Below, piece after piece: positions 1 to 21,692 of a stretch of 64,000 nucleotides of DNA. Each line of letters starts with the position of its first letter. Position 1 is the first letter of the stretch. The translations under genes were made by a program, and so were the position numbers. Under the pieces are notes generated by a model. The model searched no databases and was not told the DNA's origin. It saw only the letters and a list, made by a program, of their open reading frames with translations. The DNA is from Candidatus Beckwithbacteria bacterium CG10_big_fil_rev_8_21_14_0_10_34_10 (lineage in GTDB: Bacteria > Patescibacteriota > Microgenomatia > UBA1400): positions 11,655 to 75,654 of the forward strand of contig PEZT01000016.1 in NCBI GenBank assembly GCA_002773945.1. The letters are read 5' to 3'.

Positions 1-1032
1 CAAAGCCGCTATTCTTTCCAGTAGTTTTACTTTAGACATTTTTAAATAGTCAGAAACTATTAAGGCCGCTTCAATATTTTCTTTATTCCACTCACCTGGT
101 AAACCGGTTTTAAACTTGCCTTTTCTTTTACCATAAACTTTATTTTGAACTCGACTGGCTTTAATCAACCGATTCATATACTGACTCTTAGCATTAAAAA
201 CAGCTAAACCATCTTTAGGAAGGGATTTAATTAACTCGAACTTGGCCCATTGAGTCTTATCAATTGAACCAAATAGCTCTAGATGTTGTTCATTTATGCC
301 GGTAATAATCCCAATTTTAGGTTTAACCATCTCACAAATTTCTTTAATCTCTCCTTTTTTATAGGCGCCCATTTCCACCACTAAGATTTCATGGCGGGCC
401 CGAAGGTTATTTAGGATTAAGTTAGCAATCCCCAGCTTAGTATTACAATTCATCGGGGTTTTTAAAACATTGTAAAAACTAGACAGGAGGTGGCTTAAAA
501 TCTCTTTAACCGCTGTTTTACCGTAACTCCCCGTTATCCCAATCACTAAAAGATTATTGGCTCTAGAAATCTTTTTCTTAGCCAGATTGATAATCAGTTG
601 TTTTAGAGGAAGCATAAAAAGATGGGTTATAAAAGAGGCCAAAAAGACAGTTAAAGGAACTAAAAGGTTTAAGAAAAACAAAGTGCTAACTAATAAAAGA
701 GGCACACTAACAAAATAGTCTTTTAAAAGACGGAATAGGGCTCTAAGACTTAAGAAGAAGAAATTGTACTGTAAACCAAAGCTTAAGAGTAAGGTTAGCA
801 TGGCTCTTAAGGTAAAACGGGGTCGGTAAAACATCCGCCACTTTAGAATGTTTACTAGCTCCAAAAGCTGCTTTTTACCGGAAACTGTTCTAAAGTGAGC
901 CTGGAGCCGATCAAAACGATATTCTTTTAACTGAACTAAATAAACAAAAAAGAAATTTGACTTAATAATCTGAAGACTTAAGTAAACCAAAAAAAAGAAG
1001 GCTATGGGAACTAAAATATTTAAATCAACCAT
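1..1032 (-). CDS. murF: Mur ligase family protein, probable MurF (UDP-MurNAc-tripeptide--D-Ala-D-Ala ligase). The N-terminus is in the window and the C-terminus runs past position 1. About 160 aa of 3-4 hydrophobic helices precede the P-loop.
   Basis: Reverse-complement translation that I verified codon by codon: MVDLNILVPIAFFFLVYLSLQIIK...LVIGITGSYGKTAVKEILSHL...NTKLGIANLI...VVEMGAYKKGEIKEI...IGIITGINEQHLELFGSIDKT. P-loop GITGSYGKT and the downstream blocks align to E. coli MurF (AITGSSGKTSVKE / NNDIGVP / VIELGANHQGEI / NNLAAAHLEGFGS). The ATG is at 1030-1032. This ORF is absent from the six-frame track, probably because it touches the window edge. Confidence 0.75.
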   Translation of the reverse strand, partial: MVDLNILVPIAFFFLVYLSLQIIKSNFFFVYLVQLKEYRFDRLQAHFRTVSGKKQLLELVNILKWRMFYRPRFTLRAMLTLLLSFGLQYNFFFLSLRALFRLLKDYFVSVPLLLVSTLFFLNLLVPLTVFLASFITHLFMLPLKQLIINLAKKKISRANNLLVIGITGSYGKTAVKEILSHLLSSFYNVLKTPMNCNTKLGIANLILNNLRARHEILVVEMGAYKKGEIKEICEMVKPKIGIITGINEQHLELFGSIDKTQWAKFELIKSLPKDGLAVFNAKSQYMNRLIKASRVQNKVYGKRKGKFKTGLPGEWNKENIEAALIVSDYLKMSKVKLLERIAAL

Positions 1033-1741
1033 TATTAATAAAATCTAAAATATCTTTAGTAAAACACTGACTTTTTTTAAATGGCAAGCTATGGCCACTA
1101 TTATTATAAACGAGCAATTTAGAATTTGGAATGGCTTTTTTCATCATTAAACCATCTTTTAAAGGTGTCACTTTATCTTTTCTGCCCCAAATAATTAATA
1201 CCGGGGCTTTAATTTTCTGAAGCTTTCCTGTTAAATCTTCTTTTAAAATCTTTTTCATCGTCTTTTTCATTATTTTAGAAGCTAAAAAATAGTCTTTTTC
1301 TCGGGCAACTAAATAAAGGGCTTTTTGGGCTAGCTTAGAGAAAAAACAAAATGGAGGTAGATAAAAAAGAGCTTTGCCACTTTTGGCGATTATTAAAAAT
1401 ATTAACTTTTTAAAAGTAAGCTTTTTCCTGATCCCCGCACTATTAACTAAAATTAGGCCTTTTAAATCTTTGTTTTTTAAAGCCGCATATTTAATTCCTA
1501 AACTACCGCCAAAAGAATGACCGAGTAAATAAAAATCTTTAATCTTTTTTTCCTTAAGGTAATTTTTAAGCCAGGAAATATAATCATCTAAATTATAGGC
1601 TTTAACTATTTCTTCTTTTGAAAAGCCCGGCAAAGAAGGCAAAAAAACCCTTAAACCCTTTTCCTCAAATTTTTTCTTAATAGATTCCCATCTTTGAAGT
1701 TTACTGGCCCAACCGTGAAGAATAACAATGTTTTTACTCAT
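1025..1741 (-). CDS. alpha/beta-fold hydrolase (esterase/lipase-like)
   Basis: GHSFGG nucleophile-elbow motif (LLGHSFGGSLG), N-terminal IVILHGW, 238 aa. Confidence 0.6.
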   Translation of the reverse strand: MSKNIVILHGWASKLQRWESIKKKFEEKGLRVFLPSLPGFSKEEIVKAYNLDDYISWLKNYLKEKKIKDFYLLGHSFGGSLGIKYAALKNKDLKGLILVNSAGIRKKLTFKKLIFLIIAKSGKALFYLPPFCFFSKLAQKALYLVAREKDYFLASKIMKKTMKKILKEDLTGKLQKIKAPVLIIWGRKDKVTPLKDGLMMKKAIPNSKLLVYNNSGHSLPFKKSQCFTKDILDFINNG

Positions 1742-1750: not shown

Positions 1751-2737
1751 TCATAGCAAAGAAGTAATTGCTTTGGCTAGTTTATCAGGGCTATGACGAA
1801 GATAACTTCTTTGAAGAACATCTCCCTTAGACTTCATCTTAATAGCCGGTGCTAAAAAATCTTTTCTTATTAGTTTAAAGTTATTATTGTTTTTCAAGTC
1901 ATCTTTAACTGGAAAGCCTTTTTCTTGTTTGTATAAATTTAAAACTTTATCTGGGATTTTACCAGTATTTAAAAGAACCAAATTAAGCTTTCTCCCTAAA
2001 TGTTTTTCTATTTCTTTAATATGATCCTGGGCCGTAAAATTAGGGGTTTGACCATATCTAGTCATTAGATTAACAATATAAATAATCTTGGCTTTTGAAT
2101 TTTGAATCGCTTTTTTGGTTCCTTCTATCACTAGATTAGGAAGAATGCTGGTATAAAGATCACCTGGCCCTAAAATTATTAAATCCGCCTCTTGAATCGC
2201 TTTTTTGGCTTTAAGATAGATTTTGGCCTTGGGTTTAGTACTAAGCTTAATAATTTTCTTTCCTCCTTGATGTTTTGGTTCATCAATTTCATGCTCCCCA
2301 ATAATTGTTTTTCCGTCCTCATAAGTGGCTTTTAATTGGATATTTGAGGTAGTCACTGGAAATATTTTGCCTTCAAGCCTAAAAATTCGAGCCGCTATTT
2401 CAACTGCCCTTGGTTCAGAATTAGTCAAATCAGTTAAAGCGGTTAGAATTAAGTTGCCTAAATTATGACCCTTTAAACCTTTGCCTTTAGAAAAACGGTA
2501 TAAAAGAATTTTTCTAATGTAGTCATCACCATTTTCTGCTTTTAAAGCGGCCAAGCACTGCCTCATGTCTCCCACTGGTAAAAAGCCAAATTCAGTTCTT
2601 AGTCTCCCGGTTGAGCCACCGCTGTCAGTTACACTGACAATGGCAGTTAAGCTAACCGGGTATTTTCTTAATCCTGAAAGGACTACAAAAGAACCAGTTC
2701 CACCGCCAATGACAACTATTTTCTTTTTTTTCTTCAT
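1751..2737 (-). CDS. yvcK: YvcK/CofD-like gluconeogenesis factor (UPF0052)
   Basis: KIVVIGGGTGSFVVLSGLRK...VSVTDSGGSTGRLRTEFG...LGNLILTAL; classic YvcK N-terminal Rossmann fold and DxGGSxGRLR motifs. Confidence 0.8.
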   Translation of the reverse strand: MKKKKKIVVIGGGTGSFVVLSGLRKYPVSLTAIVSVTDSGGSTGRLRTEFGFLPVGDMRQCLAALKAENGDDYIRKILLYRFSKGKGLKGHNLGNLILTALTDLTNSEPRAVEIAARIFRLEGKIFPVTTSNIQLKATYEDGKTIIGEHEIDEPKHQGGKKIIKLSTKPKAKIYLKAKKAIQEADLIILGPGDLYTSILPNLVIEGTKKAIQNSKAKIIYIVNLMTRYGQTPNFTAQDHIKEIEKHLGRKLNLVLLNTGKIPDKVLNLYKQEKGFPVKDDLKNNNNFKLIRKDFLAPAIKMKSKGDVLQRSYLRHSPDKLAKAITSLL

Positions 2738-2786
2738 CTAATGAAATTATTATTCTTTATGTTAGACTTTATCCAACAAAGCTATT

Positions 2787-4556: not shown

Positions 4557-4599
4557 TTAACTACAAAAAATCCCTAAGCCAAATTAAGGATTATTAATC

Positions 4600-4803
4600 T
4601 TAATATTTAGGTTCACCCATTGTTCCTAGTCCTATTTTAAGCTGTGCTGCTGTTTTTTCCGGCATAGGTAGTTCTCCACCTGAGCTCATTATCCTTTCCC
4701 ACTTAAAAAATTCTTCTAAATCAGCTACTGGCAAAATTAATTCTACTCCTCCATACCATGTTGAAACTAATGGTTGGTTTTCTCCTTTAATAACTTCTGC
4801 CAT
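4600..4803 (-). CDS. small hypothetical protein (67 aa)
   Basis: MAEVIKGENQPLVSTWYGGVELILPVADLEEFFKWERIMSSGGELPMPEK...; GGAG RBS 5 nt upstream of the ATG (GGAGTTTAAATG); sits 43 nt upstream of glmS; no recognisable family. Confidence 0.45.
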   Translation of the reverse strand: MAEVIKGENQPLVSTWYGGVELILPVADLEEFFKWERIMSSGGELPMPEKTAAQLKIGLGTMGEPKY

Positions 4804-4854
4804 TTAAACTCCAATCCAGGCAGATAATATATTTATAAATATTTCTATTTAAAA

Positions 4855-5016
4855 CTAAACGCCCACCGCCTCAAGTTTATCTAGTAACCCCATAGCATCC
4901 CATTGCCAATTAGTTAATTTAGCCACTCTTATTTCCCGTGCTTCATAAGTTTCAGAATAAAGGGGTTGCTCATCTATTACGCGCTGGGCATTTAAAATAG
5001 CGCCAGCACCTGCCAT
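4855..5016 (-). CDS. small hypothetical protein (53 aa), locally GC-elevated
   Basis: Not in the ORF track (below the size cutoff). My translation: MAGAGAILNAQRVIDEQPLYSETYEAREIRVAKLTNWQWDAMGLLDKLEAVGV*. AGGA RBS (AGGATATCGATG). Same strand as the neighbours. GC is about 44% by hand count versus about one third in flanking genes. Confidence 0.3.
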   Translation of the reverse strand: MAGAGAILNAQRVIDEQPLYSETYEAREIRVAKLTNWQWDAMGLLDKLEAVGV

Positions 5017-5106
5017 CGATATCCTATAAAGACGATCAAGGTTTTCTGCTGAAATTTTAACCCACCCCCTTATTGGATTTGTAATTTTTTACAGTGTTTA
5101 TACATC

Positions 5107-6423
5107 CTATTTTACTCTTTTAATATTAGCCCCTAATTGTCTTAGTTTTTCATCTAGTTTCTCATAACCCCTATCAATATGAGATATATTTTCCAAAGTT
5201 GATTTGCCTTTGGCTATCAGGGCGGCCATAACTAGGGTAGCACCAGCCCTAAGATCAGTGACTTTAAGGTTGGCTCCTTTTAAAGGAGTGGGGCCAGTAA
5301 TTTTAGCCGCGTGAAGGTTTTTATCAGTTTCCGGATTATCAAACTCATAGTATTTTTTAAGATTCCTAACTTCTGGATTAAAAAGTTTTATTTTAGCGCC
5401 CATTTTTTCAAGTTCATGACAGTATTGAAAGCGGTTATTATGAACTCTTTCAATAACTTGGCTTATGCCCTTAGCTTGAGTCATTAAGATTGTCCATAAG
5501 GGCTGCCAGTCAGTCATAAAGCCTGGGGCTGGTTGAGTCTCTATATTAGTGGCTTTCAACTGCTTTTCATACCAAAATCTCATTCCAAACTTGTTAGTTT
5601 CAAACTTAGCTCCAATTTCATCCAGCTTTTCTAAAAAAGCTTTAAGGTGGCTTTTTTTAGCATTTTCCAACACTATATCTCCTTTAGTGGCTAAAGCGGC
5701 GACTGCATAAGAAATGGCTTCGTTTCTATCCGGCATCACTTGATGAATTGCCCCTCCCAGTTTTTTAACTCCATTTATTATTATTTCTTCTCCAGGGCCT
5801 CTTTTAATTTCTCCTCCCATTTTATTTAAAAACTCAATTAAATCATCAATTTCCGGCTCTTGACCAGCATTTTCAATTACGGTTCTACCTTTAGCCTTGG
5901 CCGCTACAATAATCATCGCTTCAGTACCAGTATGGGTTTTTTTGTCAAACCTAAAGGTAGTTCCTTTAAGATTTTTTCCGGTTATATGAATATTTTCTCC
6001 CTGATAGGAAACTTTAGCTCCCAAGCTTTTTAAAGCTTCTAAGTGGCGGTTAACCGGCCTTGTTCCTAAAACACATCCCCCTGGCAGGGGAATGATGGCT
6101 TTTCCAGATCGGGCTAAAAGCATGGCCGCAAAAAGAGTCGCCGCTCTAGTTTTTTTGCCTTCTAACTTCGGCAATTGGCTCATTTTTAAACCATTGGCTT
6201 CAATAAAAACAGTTCTTTCACCGCATTTCTTAACCTTAACTCCTATTTTCTTTAAAATTGCTTGGGTGTTTTCCACGTCTGAAATATAGGAGAGGTTGAG
6301 AATCCTTGACTCCCCTTCTCCAAGGGAAGCAGCAATCATTAATTTAAAGCCGGCATTTTTTGCTCCCCCTAATCTAACTGCTCCCATTAAAGGGTTACCA
6401 CCCTCAATCACTAATCTGGCCAT
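5107..6423 (-). CDS. murA: UDP-N-acetylglucosamine 1-carboxyvinyltransferase
   Basis: MARLVIEGGNPLMGAVRLGGAKNA...LPGGCVLGTRPV (catalytic Cys loop)...; 438 aa, EPSP-synthase fold. Confidence 0.9.
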   Translation of the reverse strand: MARLVIEGGNPLMGAVRLGGAKNAGFKLMIAASLGEGESRILNLSYISDVENTQAILKKIGVKVKKCGERTVFIEANGLKMSQLPKLEGKKTRAATLFAAMLLARSGKAIIPLPGGCVLGTRPVNRHLEALKSLGAKVSYQGENIHITGKNLKGTTFRFDKKTHTGTEAMIIVAAKAKGRTVIENAGQEPEIDDLIEFLNKMGGEIKRGPGEEIIINGVKKLGGAIHQVMPDRNEAISYAVAALATKGDIVLENAKKSHLKAFLEKLDEIGAKFETNKFGMRFWYEKQLKATNIETQPAPGFMTDWQPLWTILMTQAKGISQVIERVHNNRFQYCHELEKMGAKIKLFNPEVRNLKKYYEFDNPETDKNLHAAKITGPTPLKGANLKVTDLRAGATLVMAALIAKGKSTLENISHIDRGYEKLDEKLRQLGANIKRVK

Positions 6424-8721
6424 TTAAAATTCTCCTTTTAAGAAAACTTCTTGCTCTAGCCTTAAAGAAAACTTTTCTTTAACTTTTTTTTGAATTAACG
6501 AGACTAATTTTAACACATCTTTGGCTTTGGCATTGGATTTGTTAAGAATAAAGCTGGCATGCTTTTGGCTGACTTGCGCCCCTCCAACTGTCATTCCCTT
6601 AAAACCAGCTTTTTCAATTAAAAATCCAGCTGAATTAGAAGGAGGATTTTTGAAAAAACAACCAGCGCTTTTTTCATTCATCGGATGGTATTTATTTCGA
6701 TATTTAATTGTCTCTTTTACTATTTTCTCAATTTTAAACCTATTTCCTTTTTTAAGTTTGAAAAATAATTTAAGAATAATATCCTTACTTTTTTGAAAGG
6801 TAGAATAATCATAGGAAAACTTTATCTCTTTCCTTTTTAACGTTTTTACTTTTTTCTGTTTTAAATTATAGACTTCTACTTTTTGAATTAGATCTGCCAT
6901 GTATTTATCTTTAAAGTGAGAATTATTAAATACCGCTCCCCCAATAGTTCCGGGCAAACCGGCAAAGTATTCAAACCCAGATAAGCTATTTTCTAAGCCA
7001 TAGCTAACTAGCTGAGAGGTAAAAGCGCCACTCTCCACCCCTAAAAGATCATTATCTTTATCTATTGTCTGGGCCCGGTTAATAATTACTAAGCCCTTTA
7101 TTCCCAGATCACTAATTAAAACATTAGTTCCCCCACCAATAACCTCAAATTTAATCTTTTTTTGAAGGGCCCATTTTATGGCCTTAACTAACTGAGATTT
7201 AGTTTTAACCAGAGTGAAGTATTCGGCCTTACCCCCAATATTAAAGCTGGTAAAAGAGGCTAATGGCTTGTTTTTTTTTATTTTAATGTCTTTTTCTTTA
7301 CTTTTCCTAATATTTCCTAATAAATTTTTATGCCAGTTAAAAATATCACCGGCTCCAAGAGTTATAATTAAATCATTATCCTTAACATTACTTTTAAGAA
7401 ACTCCCCTGCTTCGGGAAAAGATTTTTTGTAAAAAACATTAGGATTATACTTTTTAATCCTCTCTGCTAATATTTCTCCGGAAACATTAGGATCTATTTG
7501 TTCTCGGGCTGAAGCATAAATATCAGTAATGATAACTAGGTCGGCTGAGTTAAAGGCTTTAGCAAAATCTTTTAATAAAGCTTTGGTCCGAGAATAAGTA
7601 TGAGGTTGAAAAATAGCGATTATCCTTTTGTCTTTAAAATTGGCTTTAACAGCTTTTAAAGTTGCCTGAAGCTGACAAGGATGATGAGCATAATCATCAA
7701 AGAACAAAATCCCATTTATTTTTTTAATTAATTCAAACCTTCTTTTAGTGCCTTTAAAGTTTTTTAAACCTTTTATAATTGTCTTTTCATCTATATTAAA
7801 AAACTTAGCCATAATAAAAGCGCCAACTGCATTTTTTAGATTAAATTCTCCGGGAACAGAAAGACTAATTTTAACTGGCTTGCCTTTTTTAGGTTTTATT
7901 AAAAATTCACTTTTCCCCTGCTTTTGCCATAAAAGCTTTATTTGCCAAAAAGCCTCCTTAGTCATCCCAAAGGTTTGAACTGGAACATTTAAGGTCTTTA
8001 TAAGTTTTTTAACCTCTGGACTATCAACCCCGGCGACTAAAAGACCGTTAGGAGGTATTTTTTTAGCAAAGTTTTTAAAAGCTTTTAAAGTCTCAAAAAT
8101 ATCTTTATATACATCAGGATGATCATAGGCAATGTTTGTCATTACCATTGCTTTGGGATTCTGGTAATCAAAACGGGGTCTTTTATCTTGGGGAGAAGAA
8201 AAATACTCATCAGCTTCAGCAATAAAATGCTGACCTTGAAAATCATATTTACCGGAAGCTTCTAGGTTGGAAATTCCCCCGGCACCAACGGCAAAACTAG
8301 GATTGAGTTTAGCGGCTTTAAAAATACTAACTAACATCGCACTTGTAGTTGTCTTCCCTCCTACGCCGCAAACAGATATACCAATCTTAGAATCCATTAG
8401 CAAACCCAAAGCCTGGGCATGAGACATTACCGGAATATTCATTTTTTTTGCAGCCATTACTTCTGGATTTTCTTCTCCCCCATGAGCGGCTGTAAAAACA
8501 AGCAAGTCAACTAACTTAAAATTTGATTCTTTAAAACCTTTGTGCCAAGAAATCCCGGCTTTTTTTAAGGTTTCATCAGTGACAAAATATTCCTCAATAT
8601 CACTCCCGCTTATCTCAATCCCCATATCCTTAAAACACAAAGCCAAAGCTGTCATTCCCACTCCCTTAATCCCTGTCATATGGATTTTTTTAATATTGTT
8701 AAAATCTATTTTGTTATTCAT
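6424..8721 (-). CDS. murC-murB: fused UDP-N-acetylmuramate--L-alanine ligase (MurC, N-terminal about 460 aa) and UDP-N-acetylenolpyruvoylglucosamine reductase (MurB, C-terminal about 300 aa)
   Basis: N-terminus: IHMTGIKGVGMTALA...ISVCGVGGKTTTSAML...LGAGDIFNW (MurC). After a KSKEKDIKIKKNK linker: PLASFTSFNIGGKAEYF...GLPGTIGGAVFNN...SAGCFFKNP...GGAQVSQKHASFILN (type II MurB FAD-binding and substrate domains). A single 765-aa ORF with no internal stop. Confidence 0.85.
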   Translation of the reverse strand: MNNKIDFNNIKKIHMTGIKGVGMTALALCFKDMGIEISGSDIEEYFVTDETLKKAGISWHKGFKESNFKLVDLLVFTAAHGGEENPEVMAAKKMNIPVMSHAQALGLLMDSKIGISVCGVGGKTTTSAMLVSIFKAAKLNPSFAVGAGGISNLEASGKYDFQGQHFIAEADEYFSSPQDKRPRFDYQNPKAMVMTNIAYDHPDVYKDIFETLKAFKNFAKKIPPNGLLVAGVDSPEVKKLIKTLNVPVQTFGMTKEAFWQIKLLWQKQGKSEFLIKPKKGKPVKISLSVPGEFNLKNAVGAFIMAKFFNIDEKTIIKGLKNFKGTKRRFELIKKINGILFFDDYAHHPCQLQATLKAVKANFKDKRIIAIFQPHTYSRTKALLKDFAKAFNSADLVIITDIYASAREQIDPNVSGEILAERIKKYNPNVFYKKSFPEAGEFLKSNVKDNDLIITLGAGDIFNWHKNLLGNIRKSKEKDIKIKKNKPLASFTSFNIGGKAEYFTLVKTKSQLVKAIKWALQKKIKFEVIGGGTNVLISDLGIKGLVIINRAQTIDKDNDLLGVESGAFTSQLVSYGLENSLSGFEYFAGLPGTIGGAVFNNSHFKDKYMADLIQKVEVYNLKQKKVKTLKRKEIKFSYDYSTFQKSKDIILKLFFKLKKGNRFKIEKIVKETIKYRNKYHPMNEKSAGCFFKNPPSNSAGFLIEKAGFKGMTVGGAQVSQKHASFILNKSNAKAKDVLKLVSLIQKKVKEKFSLRLEQEVFLKGEF

Positions 8722-8726: not shown

Positions 8727-9470
8727 TTATTCTCTTAAACCAATTAAACTGGCAAACCGGCCTTTTTTCTCCTTATTCTTTAACTCCCGAAAATGGGAAA
8801 AATAGTTTTTAGAACAACAGGTACAAATCTCATTTACCTCTATATTATCCCTTTTTATCCCTAAACTTTGCAACTTGCTGACTAAAAAACTACTTAAGTC
8901 TAAAGAAACCAAACCATTTCTCTCTTTTTTGATAAAATCTTTCCATTCTGGCAATTTACTTTGAACTAATGATCTGTGTCTAAAACAGCAGGCTTTAATT
9001 CCAGGACCTAGAGCCACAATAATATCTTTAAGGTTTGAATTAAACTCAGTCGCCATTAAAAAAAGAGTTTCTAAAAATATTTTCTCAATTGCTCCCCGCC
9101 AGCCAAGATGAACCATGGCAATTACCTTGTTTTTAGGATCATAAAAAAAGACGGGCAGGCAATCAGCGGTTTTTACCATCAAAAAAACATTTCTCTTATT
9201 AGTAACAAGGCCATCAGTTGAAGCAATCGGCTTAATAATTGATTTAACTGTTTTTATTATTTTAACCTGACTGCCATGAACCTGATCCATTTCTATAATC
9301 TGGTTTAAATTAATTTTAAGACTCTTAGCTATTTTCTGCCTGTTTTTTAAAACTTCTTTTTTTAAGCCATATTTATAGGAAACATTACCAAAGCTCCTGG
9401 GGAAAACAGCCGCCGTAAGATGACTAAACTTTTTTAACTTTTTAAACTGAAGAAATTCATTTTTACTCAT
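8727..9470 (-). CDS. pgeF: YfiH/PgeF family (peptidoglycan editing factor / purine nucleoside phosphorylase, DUF152)
   Basis: VKTADCLPVFFYDP...MVHLGWRGAIEKI...ACCFRH; the conserved C / H..GWRG / C..H metal-site pattern of YfiH. Confidence 0.8.
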   Translation of the reverse strand: MSKNEFLQFKKLKKFSHLTAAVFPRSFGNVSYKYGLKKEVLKNRQKIAKSLKINLNQIIEMDQVHGSQVKIIKTVKSIIKPIASTDGLVTNKRNVFLMVKTADCLPVFFYDPKNKVIAMVHLGWRGAIEKIFLETLFLMATEFNSNLKDIIVALGPGIKACCFRHRSLVQSKLPEWKDFIKKERNGLVSLDLSSFLVSKLQSLGIKRDNIEVNEICTCCSKNYFSHFRELKNKEKKGRFASLIGLRE

Positions 9471-9473: not shown

Positions 9474-10220
9474 CTAATAAACTCTAGTCTTCATCAAACT
9501 CTCAGCTTTTTTAAGCTGATCTTTAGTATTAATTCCTTGAAAATATTCCCCCTTAGAAACCTTTAAACTCCCAACTTTCTTATTTTTCTTAATGGCCAAA
9601 CTAACAATATCCGTCAAGTAGTATTCTTTTTTAATCGGGTCTTTTTTTATTAACCTTAAATATTTTTTTATAAACTCGACTTTAAAACAATAACAGCCAG
9701 TGTTAATTTCTTTAATTTTCTTTTGGGTGGCAGTAGTACTTTTTTCCTCAATAATACCTTTTAGCTTCCCTTTTTCATCTCTTATAATTCTTCCCAAGCC
9801 AAAAGGGTTTTTTTTAACAACAGTTAAAATAGACAAGTCTTTTTTATTTAATAAATGATATTTTAAAAGCCTTTTAATCACTCCAGAAGGATAAAAAGCC
9901 GTATCATCAGAATAACAGACAAAAATATTTTTCGTTTTTAGGGGAATTTCTTTTAAGGCGCATTTTAAGGCGTGCGCAGTTCCCAGTCTTCTTCTTTGGT
10001 CAACATAAATTAGCTTTTTTCCAAAATATTTAATGATTGAGTCTTTTTTAAAACCAACTACTAGAAGAATTTTTTCAAGTCCCACATTATTTAAAAGATC
10101 AATTGTATAGCCAATCATGGGCTTGCCTGCCAAAGGATACATGACTTTGTTTATATTCCGGGCATTAATTCTAGAGCCTTTGCCAGCCGCTAAAACAACG
10201 GCCATCATATTCTTAATCAT
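9474..10220 (-). CDS. sugar-1-phosphate nucleotidyltransferase, stand-alone equivalent of the GlmU N-terminal (UDP-GlcNAc pyrophosphorylase) domain
   Basis: AVVLAAGKGSRI...LAGKPM...QRRRLGTAHAL...EINTGCYCF...EYYLTDIV aligns block by block to the E. coli GlmU N-domain (ILAAGKGTRM / QAEQLGTGHAM / EINTGILV / EFYITDII). 248 aa with no LbH repeats. Confidence 0.8.
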   Translation of the reverse strand: MIKNMMAVVLAAGKGSRINARNINKVMYPLAGKPMIGYTIDLLNNVGLEKILLVVGFKKDSIIKYFGKKLIYVDQRRRLGTAHALKCALKEIPLKTKNIFVCYSDDTAFYPSGVIKRLLKYHLLNKKDLSILTVVKKNPFGLGRIIRDEKGKLKGIIEEKSTTATQKKIKEINTGCYCFKVEFIKKYLRLIKKDPIKKEYYLTDIVSLAIKKNKKVGSLKVSKGEYFQGINTKDQLKKAESLMKTRVY

Positions 10221-10756
10221 AGTTTATTTATCTCTCTAAAACTTGTTATTATTAAATCAGGTTTAAATAAAATATTTTCTAAATGGTTTTTTTCATCCTT
10301 TTTTTTATTCCGCCAGACCAAAACAGTTTTTATTGTACCATTTATTGATTTGGCTGTCTTTAGGTTTTCTAACTTATCATCAAAATACCAAATTTCCAAA
10401 TCAGGGGGAATCTTTTGGAAAATATTTTTTAGCTTTTTTGCTTTTGGAGGTGAAAAAATATAGGAGTTTTTAGAACTAAAGAATTTATTAAGCCCAGAAG
10501 CTTTAAGTTTATATCGCTGTCCCCTGATATCTCCTTGAGAAAATAGATAAATCTTATTTCCTTTTTTCAACCAACCATTAAGCTTAGGGTAAACATCTTT
10601 ATACACTAGATCCTGAGGTTCAATTTCTGTCCAATTAATTCTTTTAACTATTTTTAAACAAAAAGGTTCACCCTTTTTATATCCCTTATCTATCCTTTTT
10701 AAAAAATCGGTATTAAATAAAACTCTGTCTAAATCAAAAATTAAAGCTTTTTTCAT
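10217..10756 (-). CDS. HAD-superfamily small phosphatase (capless, GmhB/KdsC-sized)
   Basis: Motif I FDLDRVLF (DxDxV), motif IV YFDDKLENL; 179 aa; ATGA start/stop overlaps with both neighbours. Confidence 0.55.
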   Translation of the reverse strand: MKKALIFDLDRVLFNTDFLKRIDKGYKKGEPFCLKIVKRINWTEIEPQDLVYKDVYPKLNGWLKKGNKIYLFSQGDIRGQRYKLKASGLNKFFSSKNSYIFSPPKAKKLKNIFQKIPPDLEIWYFDDKLENLKTAKSINGTIKTVLVWRNKKKDEKNHLENILFKPDLIITSFREINKL

Positions 10757-11376
10757 AGATTTGGTTTTAAAATTGAATTACTGGAATAAAATCCTGGTTT
10801 TGGATTATATAAGGGATAAACTAAACAACTTTTTCCTAAAACAGTTCCTGGGTTTAAACAACAATTTATTCCCAGTTGGCTATTATCACCAATAATGGCT
10901 CCAAATTTTCTAAAGCCTGTAGAAATAAGTTTTTCCTTGTCCTTAATTTTTATTTCTTTTTTATCAAACCTGAAATTGGCTATTTTACTCCCGCCGCCAA
11001 AATTAACCTTGTTTCCAATCAGGCTATCACTAATATAATTAAAGTGTTTGGCAGAAGACCTGGACATAATAATGGAGTTTTTAATTTCACTCCTGCCTAA
11101 TTTACAATTGTCACCAATAATGACGGGTCCTCTTAAATAAGTAAAGGGTCCAATTTGACAATTAGAACCTATAATAACCTGGCCTTCAATTTGAACTGTT
11201 TTATCAATTATTGACTGAGCACCAACAAGAATTTTCTTTTTACTGGATTTCAGCTTTTGGCTAACATATTTATCCAGCTTTGCTAAGGCTTGCCAGGGAA
11301 AAATAATGTTTTTAAAAATTTCTATTTCTGAAAATTTTTTTAAATCAAAAAAATAGGGGGTCTTAGGAAACTTCAT
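10753..11376 (-). CDS. left-handed beta-helix acetyltransferase, stand-alone equivalent of the GlmU C-terminal (GlcN-1-P N-acetyltransferase) domain
   Basis: Hexapeptide repeats IIGSNCQIGPFTYLRGPVIIGDNCKLG...SAKHFNYISDSLIGNKVNFGGGSKIANF...AIIGDNSQLGINCCLNPGTVLG, comparable to GlmU [30 protein letters not shown]. Confidence 0.7.
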   Translation of the reverse strand: MKFPKTPYFFDLKKFSEIEIFKNIIFPWQALAKLDKYVSQKLKSSKKKILVGAQSIIDKTVQIEGQVIIGSNCQIGPFTYLRGPVIIGDNCKLGRSEIKNSIIMSRSSAKHFNYISDSLIGNKVNFGGGSKIANFRFDKKEIKIKDKEKLISTGFRKFGAIIGDNSQLGINCCLNPGTVLGKSCLVYPLYNPKPGFYSSNSILKPNL

Positions 11377-12587
11377 TTTTTAAGCCTTTCTTTTAAAGCT
11401 TTGGTAACTGCTTTTTTATCAGACCAGGGGATTTCTTTTGTCCCAAAACACATTGATTCTTCATGACCTTTTCCAAAAATACCGACAAGGTCTTTTCTAC
11501 CAGCCATTTTAATAGCTAAATTAATAGCTTTCTGTCTATCTTTTTCAATTATTAATTTATTTTTGTCTTGACAACCCGAGCTTATTTCTTTAATAATTTT
11601 ATCCAAGCTTTCAGTCCGAGGATCTTCAGCTGTTAAGACTACTTTATCAGCCAGATTACAGGCAATTTTTCCCATCATTGGTCTTTTTTCTCGATCCCTT
11701 AAGCCAGCCGAGCCAAAAACTGCTATTAATCGGCCCTTTTTATCAATTCTTAAGGTTTTCAGGACGTTTTCCAAAGCATTAGGTGTATGAGCAAAATCAA
11801 CCATCACTTTAAAGTTTTGACCTAGGTAAATTTCCTCCATCCGACCTTCAACTCCTTTAAAATTACTTACCGCCCTTAAAATATTTTTATTAGGAATCTT
11901 TAGGATTTTTCCAACACTAATAGCCGCCAAACAATTAGCCAGATTAAAATTGCCTTTTAAATTAGTTTTAAATTGGTAGTTCAAAAGGTTATAGTCACCT
12001 TTTTTAAGTCCGTAAGAAATGATTCTCCCTAAAGATTGGCTTTTAAAATCCTCAAAACTTTGATCATCAATATTTAAAACTGAAAAACCGCTTTTTTTAA
12101 ACAGCTTGGCTTTAGCTTTAAGATAATTTTCTTTAGTCTTGTGATAATCCAAATGCTCATGAGAAACATTAGTTAAAACCGATATCTTAAAGTCGATTCC
12201 TAAAAAACGATACTGGTCCAGACCATGAGAAGTCACTTCTAAAACTAAGTATTCATAGCCTTTATTTAAGATGAGTTTAAGAATTTTTTGTAATTTCCAA
12301 GGATCTGGTGAAGTTACATGGAGGCCGGTGGAGAGATTCTGATCACCAATTTTGGCGGAAACTGTGGTTATTAAAGCAGTTTTGTAATTAGCTTTTTTTA
12401 AAATTTCGTAAATTAGCGTGCTTGTGGTTGTTTTGCCGTCAGTCCCAGTCACCCCAATAATCTTTAATTTTTTCCCGGGAAAGCGGTAATACAAAGCCGC
12501 TAAAAATGCCATAGGTAAATGGTAAAAAGTATTAATTACTTTCTGGGAAATTAAATTTTTTAAAAAACTAATTAATTTTTTTATCAT
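11373..12587 (-). CDS. murE: UDP-MurNAc-L-Ala-D-Glu--2,6-diaminopimelate (or L-Lys) ligase with a shortened N-terminal domain
   Basis: IIGVTGTDGKTTTS...LEVTSHGLDQYRF...TNVSHEHLDYHKT, comparable to E. coli MurE GVTGTNGKTTT / EVSSHGLVQHRV / NLSRDHLDYHG. Only about 40 aa precede the P-loop; 404 aa. Confidence 0.8.
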   Translation of the reverse strand: MIKKLISFLKNLISQKVINTFYHLPMAFLAALYYRFPGKKLKIIGVTGTDGKTTTSTLIYEILKKANYKTALITTVSAKIGDQNLSTGLHVTSPDPWKLQKILKLILNKGYEYLVLEVTSHGLDQYRFLGIDFKISVLTNVSHEHLDYHKTKENYLKAKAKLFKKSGFSVLNIDDQSFEDFKSQSLGRIISYGLKKGDYNLLNYQFKTNLKGNFNLANCLAAISVGKILKIPNKNILRAVSNFKGVEGRMEEIYLGQNFKVMVDFAHTPNALENVLKTLRIDKKGRLIAVFGSAGLRDREKRPMMGKIACNLADKVVLTAEDPRTESLDKIIKEISSGCQDKNKLIIEKDRQKAINLAIKMAGRKDLVGIFGKGHEESMCFGTKEIPWSDKKAVTKALKERLKK

Positions 12588-12669: not shown

Positions 12670-14424
12670 CTAACTTGGAGGAATTCCATAATATAGTAAA
12701 AGTTCTTTAGTAATGGAAAAAAATAAAGGGGCGGCTGTTTCTGATCCCCAAGGAGATGAGCTTGGTTCTCTTAATTTAACTAACATTACAAATTTAGGTT
12801 CTTTGGCCGGGGCAAAACCTACAAAAGAAGCAATTGTTTTTTCTGTATCATAGTGTCCAGCGACTGGAATCTGGGCCGTACCCGTTTTACCGGCCACCTG
12901 ATAGCCTTTTATTTTTAACCACTTTGTTTCTCCTTTTTCCACTGCCTGAACCATCATTTCAGTTATTATCTTGGCTGTTTTTGGCTTAATTACTTCTCTT
13001 AATACTTCTGGCTCAATTTTTATTCTCTCACCTGAAGAAATTATTTCCTTGACTACCTGAGGCTTCATTAGTTTGCCGCCATTAGCAATCGCTCCAGTGG
13101 CTCTTAAAAGCTGAGTCCCACTAACCGCTAAACCCTGACCAAAAGAAGCCGTCGCTAAATCAACATTGTTCCAAAAACTCTTATCTTTTAAAAGCGCTTC
13201 TGTTTCTCCCTGAAGATCAATCTCTGTTAAACTACCAAAACCAAAATCAGTTAAATACTGAAAAAAATCATCCAGGCCAAGCTTCCGCGAAACAAAAACC
13301 ATTCCTAAATTATCTGAGTTCTGAATCACCTTGTCCATGGTGGAATCAGGATGATATTTTTCATCCCAGGTTTTAATTTCATATTTATCAATCTTTAAAG
13401 GCTTATCACAAATATCGCACTTGGTATTACTTTTGACTACCTCTTTATCTAGGGCAGCAGCCATCACAAAAATCTTGAAAGTTGAACCTGGCTCATATGA
13501 ATCAGAAATAAGATCATTTATAAACTTATCTTTATCAAAGAGATAATATTTCTTAGGATCAAAACTGGGGTAATTGGCTAAAGCAATCACTCCTCCTGTC
13601 CAGGGATCCATAATCATAACTGAACCTGATTTAGCCCCATATTTTTCCACGGCTTTTTCAAGCTTTTCTTCAACCATAAATTGAATTGACCGATTGAGAT
13701 GAAGGACCAAATTTTGGCCATCTTTTTTTTCCTGACTGAAAAAAGAACCAATTAAAATCGGTTTGTTAGCCGCATCAGTTTCTTGAGTTAAAAGACCTTG
13801 TCTGCCCCTAAGCTCATTATCATAATAGCCTTCCAAGCCAAAATAGCCGGTGTCTTGTCCGGCTTCATTTTTTCCCAAAAAACCTAAAAGATGAGCCGCC
13901 ATAGAAGCTTCAGGATAATAACGGATTTGCTCCTCTTCAAAACCCAAACCTTTAAGCTTCAAATCTTCTATTTTTTCTTTATCTTCCTTAAGGATCTTAT
14001 GTTTAAGAATCACCCAGGATAAATTATCCAACTGAAGTTTTTCTAAAAGATTTTCCTCTTCTTTTTTGATTAAATCCTTTTTCAAGGGCTTTTTTTTACC
14101 CTCTTGACTGGCTTCCTCTTCAAAAAAAGTAAAAGGGGCTAATTTTAAAGCTATCTCTTTTACTGGTTTATTAATTTCTCTTAAAGAAGTAAAAAGCAAA
14201 TAAGCGGTTTTATTACTGGCTAAAGGAAAGTTGTCACTGGCTAGAATTTCCCCTCTTTTAGACTGGATCTCTTTTTCAGAATAATATTGGTTTTTGGCTA
14301 AATTAGCCAGACTTTCTCGGGCTAAAACCTGCCAATAAAAAAGCCGGGAAATAATTGCTATAAAAAGAAGGATAAAAATAATCTTCAGGCTTTGTAAGCG
14401 CCAAAAAAAAGGCGGTTTTTTCAT
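12670..14424 (-). CDS. ftsI: penicillin-binding protein, class B transpeptidase (FtsI/PBP2-like)
   Basis: N-terminal transmembrane segment; STFK (SxxK), SDN (NSDNLG) and KTGTA active-site triad; position directly after ftsL in an mraZ-rsmH-ftsL cluster. Confidence 0.85.
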   Translation of the reverse strand: MKKPPFFWRLQSLKIIFILLFIAIISRLFYWQVLARESLANLAKNQYYSEKEIQSKRGEILASDNFPLASNKTAYLLFTSLREINKPVKEIALKLAPFTFFEEEASQEGKKKPLKKDLIKKEEENLLEKLQLDNLSWVILKHKILKEDKEKIEDLKLKGLGFEEEQIRYYPEASMAAHLLGFLGKNEAGQDTGYFGLEGYYDNELRGRQGLLTQETDAANKPILIGSFFSQEKKDGQNLVLHLNRSIQFMVEEKLEKAVEKYGAKSGSVMIMDPWTGGVIALANYPSFDPKKYYLFDKDKFINDLISDSYEPGSTFKIFVMAAALDKEVVKSNTKCDICDKPLKIDKYEIKTWDEKYHPDSTMDKVIQNSDNLGMVFVSRKLGLDDFFQYLTDFGFGSLTEIDLQGETEALLKDKSFWNNVDLATASFGQGLAVSGTQLLRATGAIANGGKLMKPQVVKEIISSGERIKIEPEVLREVIKPKTAKIITEMMVQAVEKGETKWLKIKGYQVAGKTGTAQIPVAGHYDTEKTIASFVGFAPAKEPKFVMLVKLREPSSSPWGSETAAPLFFSITKELLLYYGIPPS

Positions 14425-14810
14425 TAGGGATTAAGAGCGACTGGAACTTTACTGCTTAGATTTTTAACCATTGGATTTTTATTAAAACCTTTTTCTAAAG
14501 CCATATCTTCTAGTTTAGCCAAGCCGCCTCTTGAAGCGGTCTCACTTTTTACCTGGCTGTTTCTTTCCTCAATTAAGGCTATTTCTTTTTCAATTAGTTT
14601 TAAGTTCCTACCATAAGTCGCCAACCGATTAGAAAGGTAAATTTGGGCCAGAGATAAAATCGCCACTAAAACAAAAGGCAGAAAATATAACAAGTTGCCT
14701 TTGGTTATATTTTTACTGCTACCCTTAGCTTGGCGCTTCTTGAGCGTCGATTTTCTTCCCGCTCCTTTAGAGTGGGAACAACCACCTTTTTGGTTAAAAT
14801 CTGTAAGCAC
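14424..14810 (-). CDS. ftsL: FtsL-like cell-division protein (single TM plus coiled coil). The true start is probably internal, possibly a TTG near 14700.
   Basis: LLYFLPFVLVAILSLAQIYLSN followed by KLIEKEIALIEERNSQVKSE; the listed 5' end overlaps the rsmH 3' end by about 100 nt in another frame; position between rsmH and ftsI. Confidence 0.6.
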   Translation of the reverse strand: MLTDFNQKGGCSHSKGAGRKSTLKKRQAKGSSKNITKGNLLYFLPFVLVAILSLAQIYLSNRLATYGRNLKLIEKEIALIEERNSQVKSETASRGGLAKLEDMALEKGFNKNPMVKNLSSKVPVALNP

Positions 14811-15634
14811 TTTTCAGTTTCTCCTTTTTTAAAATAATTTTTAACTATTTTATCTTCTAAACCGTGAAAGCTTATAACTACTAACCGGCCACCTGATTCT
14901 AATACCCTGGCCGCTTGTTTTAATCCCTTTTTTAAATTGTTTAACTCATCATTAACAGCTATTCTTAGACTTAAAAAAACTTTAGTCGCCGGGTGAATCT
15001 TGCTTCTCCCCCTGTATTTCCGCCAATATACTTTTTTGACAATCTCCGCTAGTTGTCTAGTAGTCCTAATTGGCTCTCTTTTCCTATCCAAAACAACCGC
15101 TTTAGCAATTGGTAAAGAAAGTGGTTCTTCACCCATTTCAGAAAAAAGTTTAATAAGTTCTTTTTCATGTAAGCCATTTATTAAATCTCCTGCTTTAACT
15201 TTTAAACTCGGGTCCATCCGCATATCTAAAGATTCATCAATTTGAAAAGAAAACCCTCTTTCATCCGTCTCTAGCTGATGGGAGGAAACTCCTAAATCAA
15301 ACAGGATCCCGGAAACTTTAGAAATCTTATTTTTTTTAAGGATTTCCTCTAAATTAGCAAAGTTTCCCTGGCAAATAGTATAAGAAGCATTAGGGCAGAC
15401 ATTTTTAAAATGCTTCTTAACATATGCTATTGCCTCTGGGTCTTGGTCTAAGCCAAAAACATGACCTCCTTTCTTAATGATCCTTAAACTGTGACCACCG
15501 CCACCCAAAGTGGCATCTAGATAAAGCTTGCCTGGCTTTACCTTTAAAAATTCTACTGCTTCATTTAAAAGTACTGGCTGATGAAATAGTCTATTTTTGG
15601 TCACCTTCATCAAGCCTCTGACTAATTTTTTCAA
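14705..15634 (-). CDS. rsmH: 16S rRNA (cytosine1402-N4)-methyltransferase
   Basis: HQPVLLNEAVEFL...YLDATLGGGGHS...GILFDLGVSSHQLE...RLVVISFHGLEDKIVK. Confidence 0.9.
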   Translation of the reverse strand: MKKLVRGLMKVTKNRLFHQPVLLNEAVEFLKVKPGKLYLDATLGGGGHSLRIIKKGGHVFGLDQDPEAIAYVKKHFKNVCPNASYTICQGNFANLEEILKKNKISKVSGILFDLGVSSHQLETDERGFSFQIDESLDMRMDPSLKVKAGDLINGLHEKELIKLFSEMGEEPLSLPIAKAVVLDRKREPIRTTRQLAEIVKKVYWRKYRGRSKIHPATKVFLSLRIAVNDELNNLKKGLKQAARVLESGGRLVVISFHGLEDKIVKNYFKKGETEKCLQILTKKVVVPTLKEREENRRSRSAKLRVAVKI

Positions 15635-16028
15635 TATTTCCCTTTAAATATTCCTGATGTTCCTCCCAATCATTTAAATTCCACATTTCCACCCGGTTTC
15701 CCATGCCTACAAAAACAATCTGTTCTCCTAGTGAAGCATAAGAGCGCAAAGGGGGAGGCACAATAAATCTTCCCTGAGAATCAAGTTCAATTTCAAAAGC
15801 ATTGCCTAAAAGATACCGGTCTGTTTCTCGAGCGGCTCCAGAGATAAAAGGTTTATTAACAATCCCACCGGCTACCTTTTCCCAAGAAGAATATTTAACA
15901 ATCATTAAGGATTTTTCAAAACCGGCCGTAATAATGACTTTTTTACCTAGAAGTGAACGAAATTTAGCTGGTAAAGCTGTTCTTCCTTTATCTGAATCTA
16001 ATTTAGCTGAAAAATTACCGATTAACAT
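15591..16028 (-). CDS. mraZ: transcriptional regulator MraZ
   Basis: MLIGNFSAKLDSDKGRTALPAKFR... with a duplicated MraZ/SpoVT-AbrB-like half (second ELDSQGRFIVP); 145 aa. Confidence 0.9.
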   Translation of the reverse strand: MLIGNFSAKLDSDKGRTALPAKFRSLLGKKVIITAGFEKSLMIVKYSSWEKVAGGIVNKPFISGAARETDRYLLGNAFEIELDSQGRFIVPPPLRSYASLGEQIVFVGMGNRVEMWNLNDWEEHQEYLKGNIEKISQRLDEGDQK

Positions 16029-21689: not shown

Positions 21690-21692
21690 TAT

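Follow-up and report, generated by a model that had tools for sequence, protein, structure and literature searches.

The closest described counterpart of the gene analyzed here is the MurB/C fusion protein of Verrucomicrobium spinosum (VspiD_010100018130), which complements both murB(ts) and murC(ts) mutants of Escherichia coli and for which MurC kinetics have been measured, while MurB activity was not demonstrable in vitro (Naqvi et al. 2016, PMC4803751). When exposed to V. spinosum protein extract in a cleavage assay, the V. spinosum fusion stayed intact, and the authors of that study judged it likely to be active in its fused form (PMC4803751). A survey of Mur chimeras found that MurC-MurB fusions make up about 11% of the Mur chimeras in UniProt (Shirakawa et al. 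2023, PMC10214165); unidentified species were excluded from this survey, which therefore did not extend to CPR examples. Other Mur chimeras include MurE-MurF, with a structure from Bordetella pertussis, MurC-Ddl of Chlamydia, and MurG-MurC (PMC10214165). Like the fusion described below, these chimeras join neighboring dcw genes, and the rationales proposed for them in PMC10214165, namely stoichiometry, stability and a possible hand-over of intermediates, are the same as would apply here. In the literature searched, MurC-MurB fusion is described mainly for Verrucomicrobia (PMC4803751, PMC10214165), and nothing relevant was found there on such fusions in CPR/Patescibacteria.

The 64-kb stretch of DNA that we analyzed (the window) encodes a 765-aa protein in a single open reading frame, with an ATG start and a TAA stop, at 6424..8721 on the minus strand, a strand assignment that was absent from the initial annotation. 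The reading of this frame as an N-terminal MurC fused to a C-terminal MurB held: the two halves are in frame, each scores above curated family models, and the four motifs quoted in support of it, GVGGKTTT (residues 118-125), GAGDI (456-460), FNIGGKAEYF and SAGCFFKNP, are all in the translation. Stop codons make up about 7-8% of random codons at ~33% GC, and by our own arithmetic 765 open codons have a probability of ~1e-26, which makes a chance origin of the frame untenable. The MurC module (residues 12-467; 7321..8688, minus strand) carries Mur_ligase (PF01225) at residues 12-111, Mur_ligase_M (PF08245) at 117-304 and Mur_ligase_C (PF02875) at 327-458, the order of the three-domain Mur-ligase architecture with its ATP P-loop GxxGK(T/S), here GVGGKTTT, and a DDYAHHP motif. 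It reached 403.8 bits against the NCBIfam murC model TIGR01082 (cut-off 335.1), with residues 12-467 covering profile positions 1-448 of 449, and its closest solved MurC is 9IR5 (E 5e-76), followed by 1GQQ and 2F00. Across 48 homologues no variation was seen at residues G119, G122, K123, E169, D171, E172, N196, D200, H201, N294, N297, R327, R328, DDYAH (343-347) and H374.

The MurB module (residues 482-763; 6433..7278, minus strand) comprises FAD_binding_4 (PF01565; 501-623) and MurB_C (PF02873; 663-759). A failure of this half against MurB profile models, proposed earlier as the observation that would speak against the fusion, was not seen; it exceeded two MurB equivalog cut-offs, those of NF010480 (282.8 bits against 259, residues 474-763) and TIGR00179 (215.8 bits against 144.5). 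No second MurC or MurB homologue was found in the 64-kb window. The NCBI label for fused proteins of this kind is "MurC" only, and the JGI gene caller cut the window protein to 513 aa. Compared with the published fusion, the window protein has the same domain order, MurC N-terminal and MurB C-terminal (PMC4803751), the same five Pfam domains and a similar length (765 against 770 aa). The junction is equally tight in the two, since the V. spinosum constructs were split at residues 477-482 (PMC4803751) and the junction in the window spans residues 468-481.

This junction (LGNIRKSKEKDIKI; 7279..7320, minus strand) is made up of the last part of the MurC C-terminal helix and a short hinge, and it lies at these positions rather than at about nt 7330-7420, where the initial annotation had placed it. 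It was also described as a lysine-rich linker with no stop codon; the segment is indeed free of stop codons, and of canonical start codons, but it holds no insert and corresponds to an ordinary MurC C-terminal tail followed by a MurB N-terminal head. The closest syntenic relative, L083 (from Logan SRR31656007), has the same gene order as the window, namely rsmH, ftsL, pbp, murE without its N-domain, split glmU, pgeF, murC, murB, murA, glmS and cofD. In L083 murC and murB are separate and overlap by 11 nt, with MurC ending in ...WHKEIIKRFKNED before its stop codon and MurB starting with MKIKKNILLASYTTF, whereas the window reads ...WHKNLLGNIRKSKEKD-IKIKKNKPLASFTSF. When the window sequence D-IKIKKNKPLASFTSF is aligned to the L083 MurB head, an ATT codon (Ile479; 7285..7287, minus strand) stands in place of the former Met, where the ancestral murB had its start codon. 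The MurC tails and MurB heads of the relatives match those of the window in length and character, and the difference is that the relatives have two frames with a stop codon and an ATG where the window has one frame with ATT at the old start. Relative to its unfused relatives the junction is thus seamless, the native MurC tail running directly into the native MurB head.

The overlapping or abutting arrangement of murC and murB in relatives, in different frames, also means that a single-base indel could in principle fuse them, and a homopolymer of nine A residues (7271..7279, minus strand) sits in the junction just 3' of the former start codon. Runs of at least nine A/T bases are found only seven times in the window, this one included. 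In the MurC tree, moreover, fused forms occur here and there among unfused sisters, as could also result from errors in metagenome-assembled genomes (MAGs). An assembly or sequencing indel that wrongly joined two overlapping genes is nevertheless very unlikely as the source of the fusion, as judged from the sequence, because the MurB start is ATT in the window and the separate genes of the relative overlap by 11 nt. After any 1-nt shift at or near the A-run a stop codon lies just upstream in the MurB frame, and no ATG, GTG or TTG precedes the conserved PLASFT; such a "corrected" sequence would leave murB untranslatable, and an indel in the A-run therefore could not conceal an unfused gene pair. 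Around the junction both alternative reading frames are rich in stops, and neither holds a MurB start codon. In a JGI contig whose ends differ, 12,016 nt that include the junction are 100% identical to the window, although the two assemblies possibly derive from the same reads and their independence is therefore incomplete. Furthermore, a clade of 10 fusions with 100% bootstrap support and the presence of fusions in several phyla show that the fused state is heritable.

The same homopolymer raised the question of whether two separate proteins might be made in vivo, by slippage on the A-run or by initiation near Ile479, which would render the fusion nominal. ATT is a rare but known start codon in bacteria, an AGGA lies 17 nt upstream of it, and a +1 shift at the A-run would lead to a TAG after three codons and hence to a MurC of normal length. 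However, a canonical start codon is absent at the MurB head, the AGGA lies much farther from the ATT than the usual ~5-10 nt, in contrast to the clear AAGGAG ahead of murA, and long A/T runs are common in the window, with 58 of at least eight bases at its 33% GC. Other fusions have Leu or Phe at the Ile479 position or lack the head altogether. Programmed slippage on the A-run was rejected as unsupported, and we regard separate synthesis of the two proteins by either route as extremely improbable.

An AF2 model of the single fused polypeptide had a mean pLDDT of 93.2 and a pTM of 0.67. A helix spans residues 460-474, the block 471-480 forms a short hinge of lower confidence (pLDDT 72), and the first MurB strand covers 482-486. 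With a pTM at this level the model does not fix how the two modules are oriented to each other, and no PDB chain spanning both halves was found. The predicted arrangement differs from that of MurE-MurF, in which a hydrophobic patch, taking the place of a MurF cap, locks the modules rigidly; in the window fusion both modules have complete termini and are linked by a short hinge, with no fixed interface established (AF2 pTM 0.67).

The fusion lies within a dcw operon, with the genes listed between 5107 and 16028 on the minus strand, that is tightly coupled on both sides of it. Downstream, the ATG of murA (5107..6423; TIGR01072, 442.6 bits against a cut-off of 392.7) directly follows the fusion's TAA, and its AAGGAG Shine-Dalgarno sequence lies within the 3' end of murB. 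Upstream, the stop codon of pgeF, encoding the peptidoglycan editing factor (8727..9470; TIGR00726, 170.5 bits against a cut-off of 141), is 5 nt from the murC ATG. Next to pgeF is a split GlmU (9474..11376), as annotated initially, consisting of a uridylyltransferase-only gene (9474..10220) and a hexapeptide (LbH) acetyltransferase gene (10753..11376) with a HAD-family gene between them (10217..10756). The adjoining gene, thought at first to be a remodelled MurF, proved to be a 404-aa MurE without its N-terminal UDP-binding domain (11373..12587; TIGR01085, 430.3 bits, cut-off 257, with a match to profile positions 88-485 of 486; no PF01225), and a MurF-like gene (1..1044) is cut by the left edge of the window. 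Farther upstream (12670..16028) are putative genes for an ftsI-like PBP, ftsL-like, rsmH and mraZ, which were read from translations and are backed by Pfam marks on the syntenic L083 genes. The two best promoter-like sigma-70 sites (16247-16219 and 16147-16119, each scoring 11/12) lie just upstream of mraZ, in a window-wide scan whose promoter and terminator counts were not above those of shuffled controls (42 vs 34.9±4.7 and 13 vs 11±3.4, respectively). An Rfam scan of the whole window returned zero RNA genes.

The combination of fusion, split GlmU and altered Mur ligase had been taken as a sign of a lineage-wide re-wiring of the pathway. In support of this, L083 also has the truncated MurE and an equally split glmU, but without the HAD gene and in the opposite order. 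The fusion itself does not share this distribution, because murC and murB are apart in L083 and also in L082, where they are separated by 110 nt. The window fusion is thus a sporadic, derived state rather than a lineage-wide trait.

Separate, adjacent genes in the order murC-murB were also the rule elsewhere. We scanned GTDB for the pattern, drawing on a sample of at least 600 pattern matches rather than a census, and among the matches listed 33 of 36 loci with both genes had murC followed by a separate, adjacent murB. The gap fell within ±32 nt in about two thirds of these 33 pairs, with a full range of -32 to +315 nt, these estimates depending on heuristically guessed start codons. No close relative of the window was among the GTDB matches listed, the best being ~42% identical. 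The match of 36 loci across many phyla to query residues 11-765 does not reflect fusion in most of them, since in an ORF check only 2 were single ORFs.

In protein databases, by comparison with what had been called a rare fusion reported in only a few lineages, the architecture is common: MurC-MurB fusions accounted for 77 of the best 150 representatives of 50%-identity clusters, all in C-to-B order and including Verrucomicrobiota, Planctomycetota and Patescibacteria, and for ~30 of the best 120 matches in a search of 5.8 billion proteins. The statement fits the literature, with its focus on Verrucomicrobia, but not the sequences. About 30 other fusions, 35-52% identical to the window protein, have non-homologous junctions of 0 to ~65 residues.

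We next compared each half of the window protein with fused and unfused relatives. The sequences nearest to both halves are those of unfused Patescibacteria (L083, L082 and loci of Gottesman-, Beckwith-, Roizman- and Levyibacteria). Identity to unfused Patescibacteria is 57-61% for the MurC half and 42-43% for the MurB half, compared with only 30-31% and 32%, respectively, to Verrucomicrobiota fusions; the latter were represented by the MAG-derived P0286, P0289 and P0291 and not by V. spinosum itself, whose protein, sought by the primer-derived peptide tags KLYEPMANH and IGEEEPLPL, was absent among the fetched proteins. In trees, unfused lineages separate the window from the Verrucomicrobiota and Planctomycetota fusions. 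Because both halves resemble unfused patescibacterial genes far more than verrucomicrobial fusions, the fusion has an origin independent of theirs; we found no sign of common descent, and the shared architecture is convergent. The count of independent fusion events overall was taken from an NJ tree of one gene, many nodes of which are weakly supported. We also considered that the MurB half might have been acquired separately from the MurC half, as it groups with sequences carrying the Asp and Cys described below in the NJ tree, but the raw identities are nearly tied (48% vs 45%).

It is thus very probable that the window gene is a genuine bifunctional MurC-MurB fusion that arose independently of V. 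spinosum MurB/C from adjacent, coupled dcw genes. In the proposed course of events, murC and murB, adjacent and translationally coupled as in relatives, where they abut or overlap by a few bases, would have been put in frame with loss of the murC stop codon, and the murB start codon would later have decayed from ATG to ATT. Fusions recur along the dcw gene order, and that of the window is one of many such cases.

The MurB half has a second unusual property. In E. coli MurB the substrate carboxylate is bound by Arg159 together with Glu325, and Ser229 serves as general acid (PMC12844806, citing Benson et al. 1997). This canonical site is incomplete in the window, with Asp638 in place of Arg159 and Cys688 in place of Ser229, while the glutamate is kept (Glu758); in addition, the column of E. 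coli Gly123 is occupied by a histidine (His602). The column of E. coli Tyr190 is a gap; lacking the Tyr190 loop and the extra segment typical of type I, the window MurB is a type II (S. aureus-like) enzyme, as is V. spinosum MurB. The PDB matches of this half were 3TX1, 4PYT, 1HSK and 2GQT, the best of them type II, and the type II MurBs of S. aureus (1HSK), Listeria (3TX1) and Thermus caldophilus (2GQT) aligned end to end (E 5e-53 to 8e-35), whereas the type I E. coli MurB matched only in two pieces. The Thermus protein shares the KSAGC(A/F)FKNPP Cys motif with the window. All three type II structures keep the Arg in Y-R-x-S, as does E. coli MurB, whereas the window has Y-D-Y-S; the MurB halves of the MAG-derived Verrucomicrobiota fusions have Arg (YRxS) and Cys, compared with Asp, Cys and His602 in the window. 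No MurB with Asp at the Arg159 position was found among solved structures or in the literature searched, which also held nothing relevant on an Asp/Cys MurB.

Replacement of both the carboxylate-binding Arg and the general-acid Ser could mean that the MurB half is dead or has been repurposed for a scaffolding or regulatory role, with a functional MurB encoded elsewhere in the genome, and the undetectable in vitro MurB activity of the V. spinosum fusion (PMC4803751) would be in line with this. However, the Asp and Cys are also present in 10 unfused murB genes at the normal murC-murB position in Gottesman-, Beckwith- and Roizmanbacteria and other Patescibacteria, and a Cys at the Ser229 position is shared by the Thermus MurB structure 2GQT and the MAG-derived Verrucomicrobiota fusions. 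Furthermore, His or Lys occupies the E. coli Gly123 column in 21 of 22 Asp+Cys sequences, compared with Gly in 102 of 103 Arg sequences and a gap in the remaining one; this near-perfect covariation is a signature of compensation, not of decay. Glu758 and the glycines of the FAD domain are conserved, and the scores above two equivalog cut-offs and the lack of a second murB within the window likewise speak against loss of function, which we consider improbable. Sequence and predicted fold place the C-terminal half in the MurB family, as a member of a non-canonical active-site subtype that probably retains reductase activity.

More tentatively, this MurB may point to a broader pattern in Microgenomates-type Patescibacteria, a possibility that we favor less than the fusion itself. 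These bacteria might possess an undescribed catalytic subtype with a re-wired MurB site, with Asp (or Gly) in place of Arg159, Cys in place of Ser229, and a new His or Lys on the loop of the Gly123 column. They might also have a differently organized early peptidoglycan pathway, in which murC-murB, murE-murC and murE-murC-murB were fused repeatedly and independently and which includes a split GlmU and a MurE without the UDP-binding N-domain. The earlier idea of re-wiring would be partly rescued in this form.

The product of the fused gene would contain both catalytic modules in full, linked through the native MurC C-terminal helix and ~6-8 hinge residues. The MurB module would use FAD and NADPH to reduce UDP-GlcNAc-enolpyruvate, probably supplied by MurA, whose gene comes next in the operon, to UDP-MurNAc, to which the MurC module would add L-Ala with ATP. 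Fusion would guarantee a 1:1 stoichiometry and the co-localization of these two consecutive steps, and true substrate channelling between the two modules is possible.

The fusion architecture is already known from V. spinosum and common in databases, and the window holds an independently evolved example; its own significance is modest, extending the V. spinosum MurB/C architecture to Patescibacteria. It illustrates that this architecture arises repeatedly by simple loss of a stop codon between overlapping dcw genes, bears on arguments for Mur enzymes working as an assembly, and is useful for genome annotation, given the "MurC"-only naming and the 513-aa gene call. Moreover, with its tight, seamless junction the protein is a compact candidate for solving the structure of a MurC-MurB fusion, which is still missing. 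The Asp/Cys/His MurB, if active, would matter more than the fusion, as a residue held to be essential for transition-state stabilization would then be relocatable, and it would be relevant to the design of MurB inhibitors and to cell-wall construction in CPR bacteria.

The murC::murB gene is a single open reading frame on the minus strand (window 6424..8721) that runs from an ATG through 765 codons to a TAA. This bears out the single fused 765-aa ORF of the initial annotation, which named no strand, and all four motifs quoted there were found in the translation. Since the chance of 765 open codons is estimated at ~1e-26 at the window's GC content of ~33%, the open frame is not a chance product. 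Five Pfam domains follow in order: Mur_ligase (residues 12-111), Mur_ligase_M (117-304), Mur_ligase_C (327-458), FAD_binding_4 (501-623) and MurB_C (663-759). Among the NCBIfam equivalogs, murC TIGR01082 matched residues 12-467 over profile positions 1-448 of 449 (403.8 bits; cut-off 335.1), and the C-terminal half, when tested against MurB profile HMMs, passed the cut-offs of both NF010480 (residues 474-763; 282.8 bits, cut-off 259) and TIGR00179 (215.8 bits, cut-off 144.5). By these curated models, the predicted protein belongs to both the MurC and the MurB families. A phmmer analysis of all ORFs in the 64 kb detected no second MurB or MurC, and further Mur ligases were limited to MurE and, at the left edge, a partial MurF-like gene.

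The junction DNA holds an A9 run, and it had to be considered that an indel artefact at this run could have joined two genes. As the unfused reference for the junction we used the closest fully syntenic relative, locus L083, in which murC and murB are separate and overlap by 11 nt, MurC ending in '...GAGDIFIWHKEIIKRFKNED*' and MurB starting with 'MKIKKNILLASYTTF'. The comparison speaks against an artefact: the window reads '...GAGDIFNWHKNLLGNIRKSKEKD-IKIKKNKPLASFTSF', with both the tail of MurC and the head of MurB complete, and ATT (Ile479, nt 7285-7287) now stands where the ancestral MurB had its Met codon. Furthermore, the other two frames contain many stops around the junction, and any 1-nt shift at the A-run leaves the MurB frame with a stop directly upstream and without an ATG, GTG or TTG codon ahead of the conserved PLASFT; an unfused version "corrected" in this way would lack a translatable murB. 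JGI contig Ga0066639_10001347 (21.8 kb), which is a different assembly because it begins inside the window's murE, is 100% identical to the window over 12,016 nt, junction included. Finally, ~30 further MurC-MurB proteins (35-52% identity), each encoded by a single ORF in JGI, ENA, NCBI or Logan assemblies, keep the motifs of both halves, with 0 to ~65 non-homologous residues at their junctions. The fusion junction thus exists, but it lies at nt 7279-7320 and not at 7330-7420 as first described. In an AF2 model of the whole protein (48-sequence alignment; mean pLDDT 93.2, pTM 0.67), the C-terminal helix of MurC covers residues 460-474 and the first strand of MurB residues 482-486, and the lowest internal confidence (72) falls in block 471-480. 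Because of this arrangement, the "lysine-rich linker", which indeed lacks a stop, is better described as a hinge of ~6-8 residues derived from the native termini. The JGI caller placed the start of the same gene (L081 4475-6016, corresponding to window 6424-7965) at Met253, which gives a product of only 513 aa and omits 760 nt from the 5' part of murC; for this reason, among others, the fused architecture is under-annotated in public records.

A scan of GTDB species genomes returned at least 36 loci with both murC and murB. These 36 were first read as fusions, a reading ruled out by an ORF check for single-ORF status: among the loci listed, two are single ORFs, one of 765 aa in a Patescibacteria MAG and one of 800 aa in a Solirubrobacterales MAG, 33 carry separate adjacent murC->murB, and in one murB lies 1.8 kb downstream of murC. 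The estimated gap was within ±32 nt in about two-thirds of the 33 (full range −32 to +315 nt). Adjacent unfused loci among the matches listed included the patescibacterial Gottesman-, Beckwith-, Levyi- and Roizmanbacteria as well as Chloroflexota, Bacteroidota, Ignavibacteriota, Prochlorococcus, Termititenax and Rhizobiaceae. Because 33 of the 36 listed loci are separate and adjacent, murC-murB adjacency is taken as widespread and fusion as a derived stop-loss.

HMMER was run exhaustively against 1.84 billion cluster representatives; of the 150 best, 77 were MurC->MurB fusions, all in the same order, and named members of these clusters include Verrucomicrobiota and Planctomycetota. Longer chimeras in relatives outside the window keep dcw gene order (P0010/P0012/P0013, P0044, P0222/P0260, P0151); MurE-MurC (~968 aa) and MurE-MurC-MurB (~1250 aa) proteins are among the closest homologues of the window protein, a MurG-MurC-MurB of 1155 aa occurs in Verrucomicrobiia, and a MurC-MurB-Ddl chimera has 1071 aa. 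When MurC halves (154 sequences, 33 fused) were placed in an NJ tree, the fusions fell into 18 separate all-fused groups, with 17 changes by Fitch parsimony, and one clade of 10 fusions with 100% bootstrap had unfused Roizmanbacteria-type loci as its nearest relatives. As many nodes are weak, we claim from this tree several independent origins and no exact count. The window MurC half shares 57-61% identity with unfused patescibacterial MurC versus 30-31% with verrucomicrobial fusions, and the MurB half 42-43% versus 32%; judged by these identities, the window fusion does not derive from its verrucomicrobial counterpart.

Alignment to solved MurBs showed that the window's MurB half has Y-D-Y-S, compared with Y-R-x-S in S. 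aureus, Listeria and Thermus, and, within SAGCFFKNP, a Cys that is Ser in S. aureus but is shared with Thermus 2GQT. E. coli MurB, which likewise has Y-R-D-S and Ser at these positions, supplied the numbering, which is self-consistent (R159, S229, E325). Asp638 (window 6808-6810, minus strand) stands at the Arg159 position, Cys688 (6658-6660, minus) at the Ser229 position and His602 (6916-6918, minus) in the Gly123 column, while Glu758, equivalent to E325, is kept. In E. coli MurB, the carboxylate of the substrate is bound by Arg159 and Glu325, and Ser229 serves as general acid (PMC12844806, citing Benson et al. 1997). In a set of 131 MurB halves, the Gly123 column is Gly in 102 and a gap in one of the 103 with Arg159; where Arg159 is absent, His/Lys stands there in 21 of the 22 sequences with Asp+Cys and in both of those with Gly+Cys. 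This covariation looks like a relocation of the positive charge, compensation rather than decay, and we found no description of such an Arg159-loss/His-Lys-gain variant in the searchable literature. The Asp+Cys state was present in 17 fused and also in 10 unfused Patescibacteria sequences and is not a consequence of fusion; Verrucomicrobiota and Planctomycetota MAG fusions have Arg+Cys. As to its origin, the window MurB groups with Asp+Cys sequences in an NJ tree, while raw identity slightly favours Arg+Ser relatives. Four GTDB loci (L021, L023, L036, L050) with Patescibacteria-like murC-murB and an Asp+Cys MurB come from MAGs titled "uncultured Pseudomonadales" or "Gammaproteobacteria", and two bacterial MurC proteins (P0031, P0099) bear the name "Candidatus Bathyarchaeia archaeon"; these titles probably reflect wrong taxonomic labels or misbinning.

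The gene lies in a minus-strand dcw-type operon with the order mraZ, rsmH, ftsL-like, PBP, murE, LbH acetyltransferase, HAD, glmU-N, pgeF, murC::murB, murA, then glmS, a cofD-like gene, a hydrolase and murF. The murC ATG is 5 nt past the pgeF stop, and the murA ATG directly follows the murB TAA, with AAGGAG within the 3' end of murB; a comparable SD-plus-start signal is absent at the MurC-MurB junction. What the initial annotation called a remodelled MurF is instead a MurE without its N-terminal domain (11373-12587, minus; 404 aa; TIGR01085, 430 bits, profile 88-485 of 486; no PF01225, the N-terminal UDP-binding domain), with only 82 nt upstream before the PBP gene. MurE of L083 is likewise short (415 aa, at 2573-3820), whereas the MurE part of triple fusion P0010 has a ~95-residue N-terminal extension ahead of the middle domain. 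The reported split of GlmU is real, with separate uridylyltransferase-only and hexapeptide acetyltransferase genes (window 9474-11376, minus), the latter having its best match in the C-terminal region of archaeal-type GlmU (TIGR03992); the two halves flank a 179-aa HAD-family gene, and each of the three genes overlaps its neighbour by 4 nt. In L083 the halves are adjacent in reversed order without the HAD gene, so that short MurE and split GlmU are both common to this unfused relative. The otherwise tightly packed operon has a 550-nt murA-glmS gap (window 4557-5106) in which JGI calls two small ORFs of 53 and 67 aa and no match to an Rfam family was obtained. Upstream of the dcw block lies a polysaccharide cluster (~21075-26317, minus) encoding a polyprenyl glycosylphosphotransferase, a mannose-1-phosphate guanylyltransferase and several GT4/GT2 glycosyltransferases; ORFs of 713 aa (18940-21081) and 267 aa (16276-17079) gave no NCBIfam match.

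Among known systems, V. spinosum MurB/C comes closest, with the same module order, size and tight junction; the domain-order comparison with a published fusion that had been proposed thus gave agreement, and the two proteins have architecture in common but not descent. V. spinosum MurB/C complements E. coli murB(ts) and murC(ts), and its MurC kinetics were measured, with MurB activity not detectable in vitro (PMC4803751). MurC-MurB makes up ~11% of UniProt Mur chimeras, concentrated in Verrucomicrobia, in a survey that excluded unidentified species (Shirakawa et al. 2023, PMC10214165), and we found no PDB chain covering both halves. Both window modules are complete, conserved, covalently joined and sole copies in the 64 kb, and we infer that both are active. 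The MurC module would ligate L-Ala to UDP-MurNAc with ATP, and the MurB and MurC steps are consecutive, with murA as the next cistron. Fusion would fix a 1:1 stoichiometry and co-localise the modules, and may perhaps also favour hand-over of UDP-MurNAc between them, the pTM leaving the relative orientation of the active sites unfixed. Altogether, the fusion is real but ordinary, a new and independently evolved example of a known architecture that is in itself of modest interest; the MurB active-site variant is the more interesting side result.
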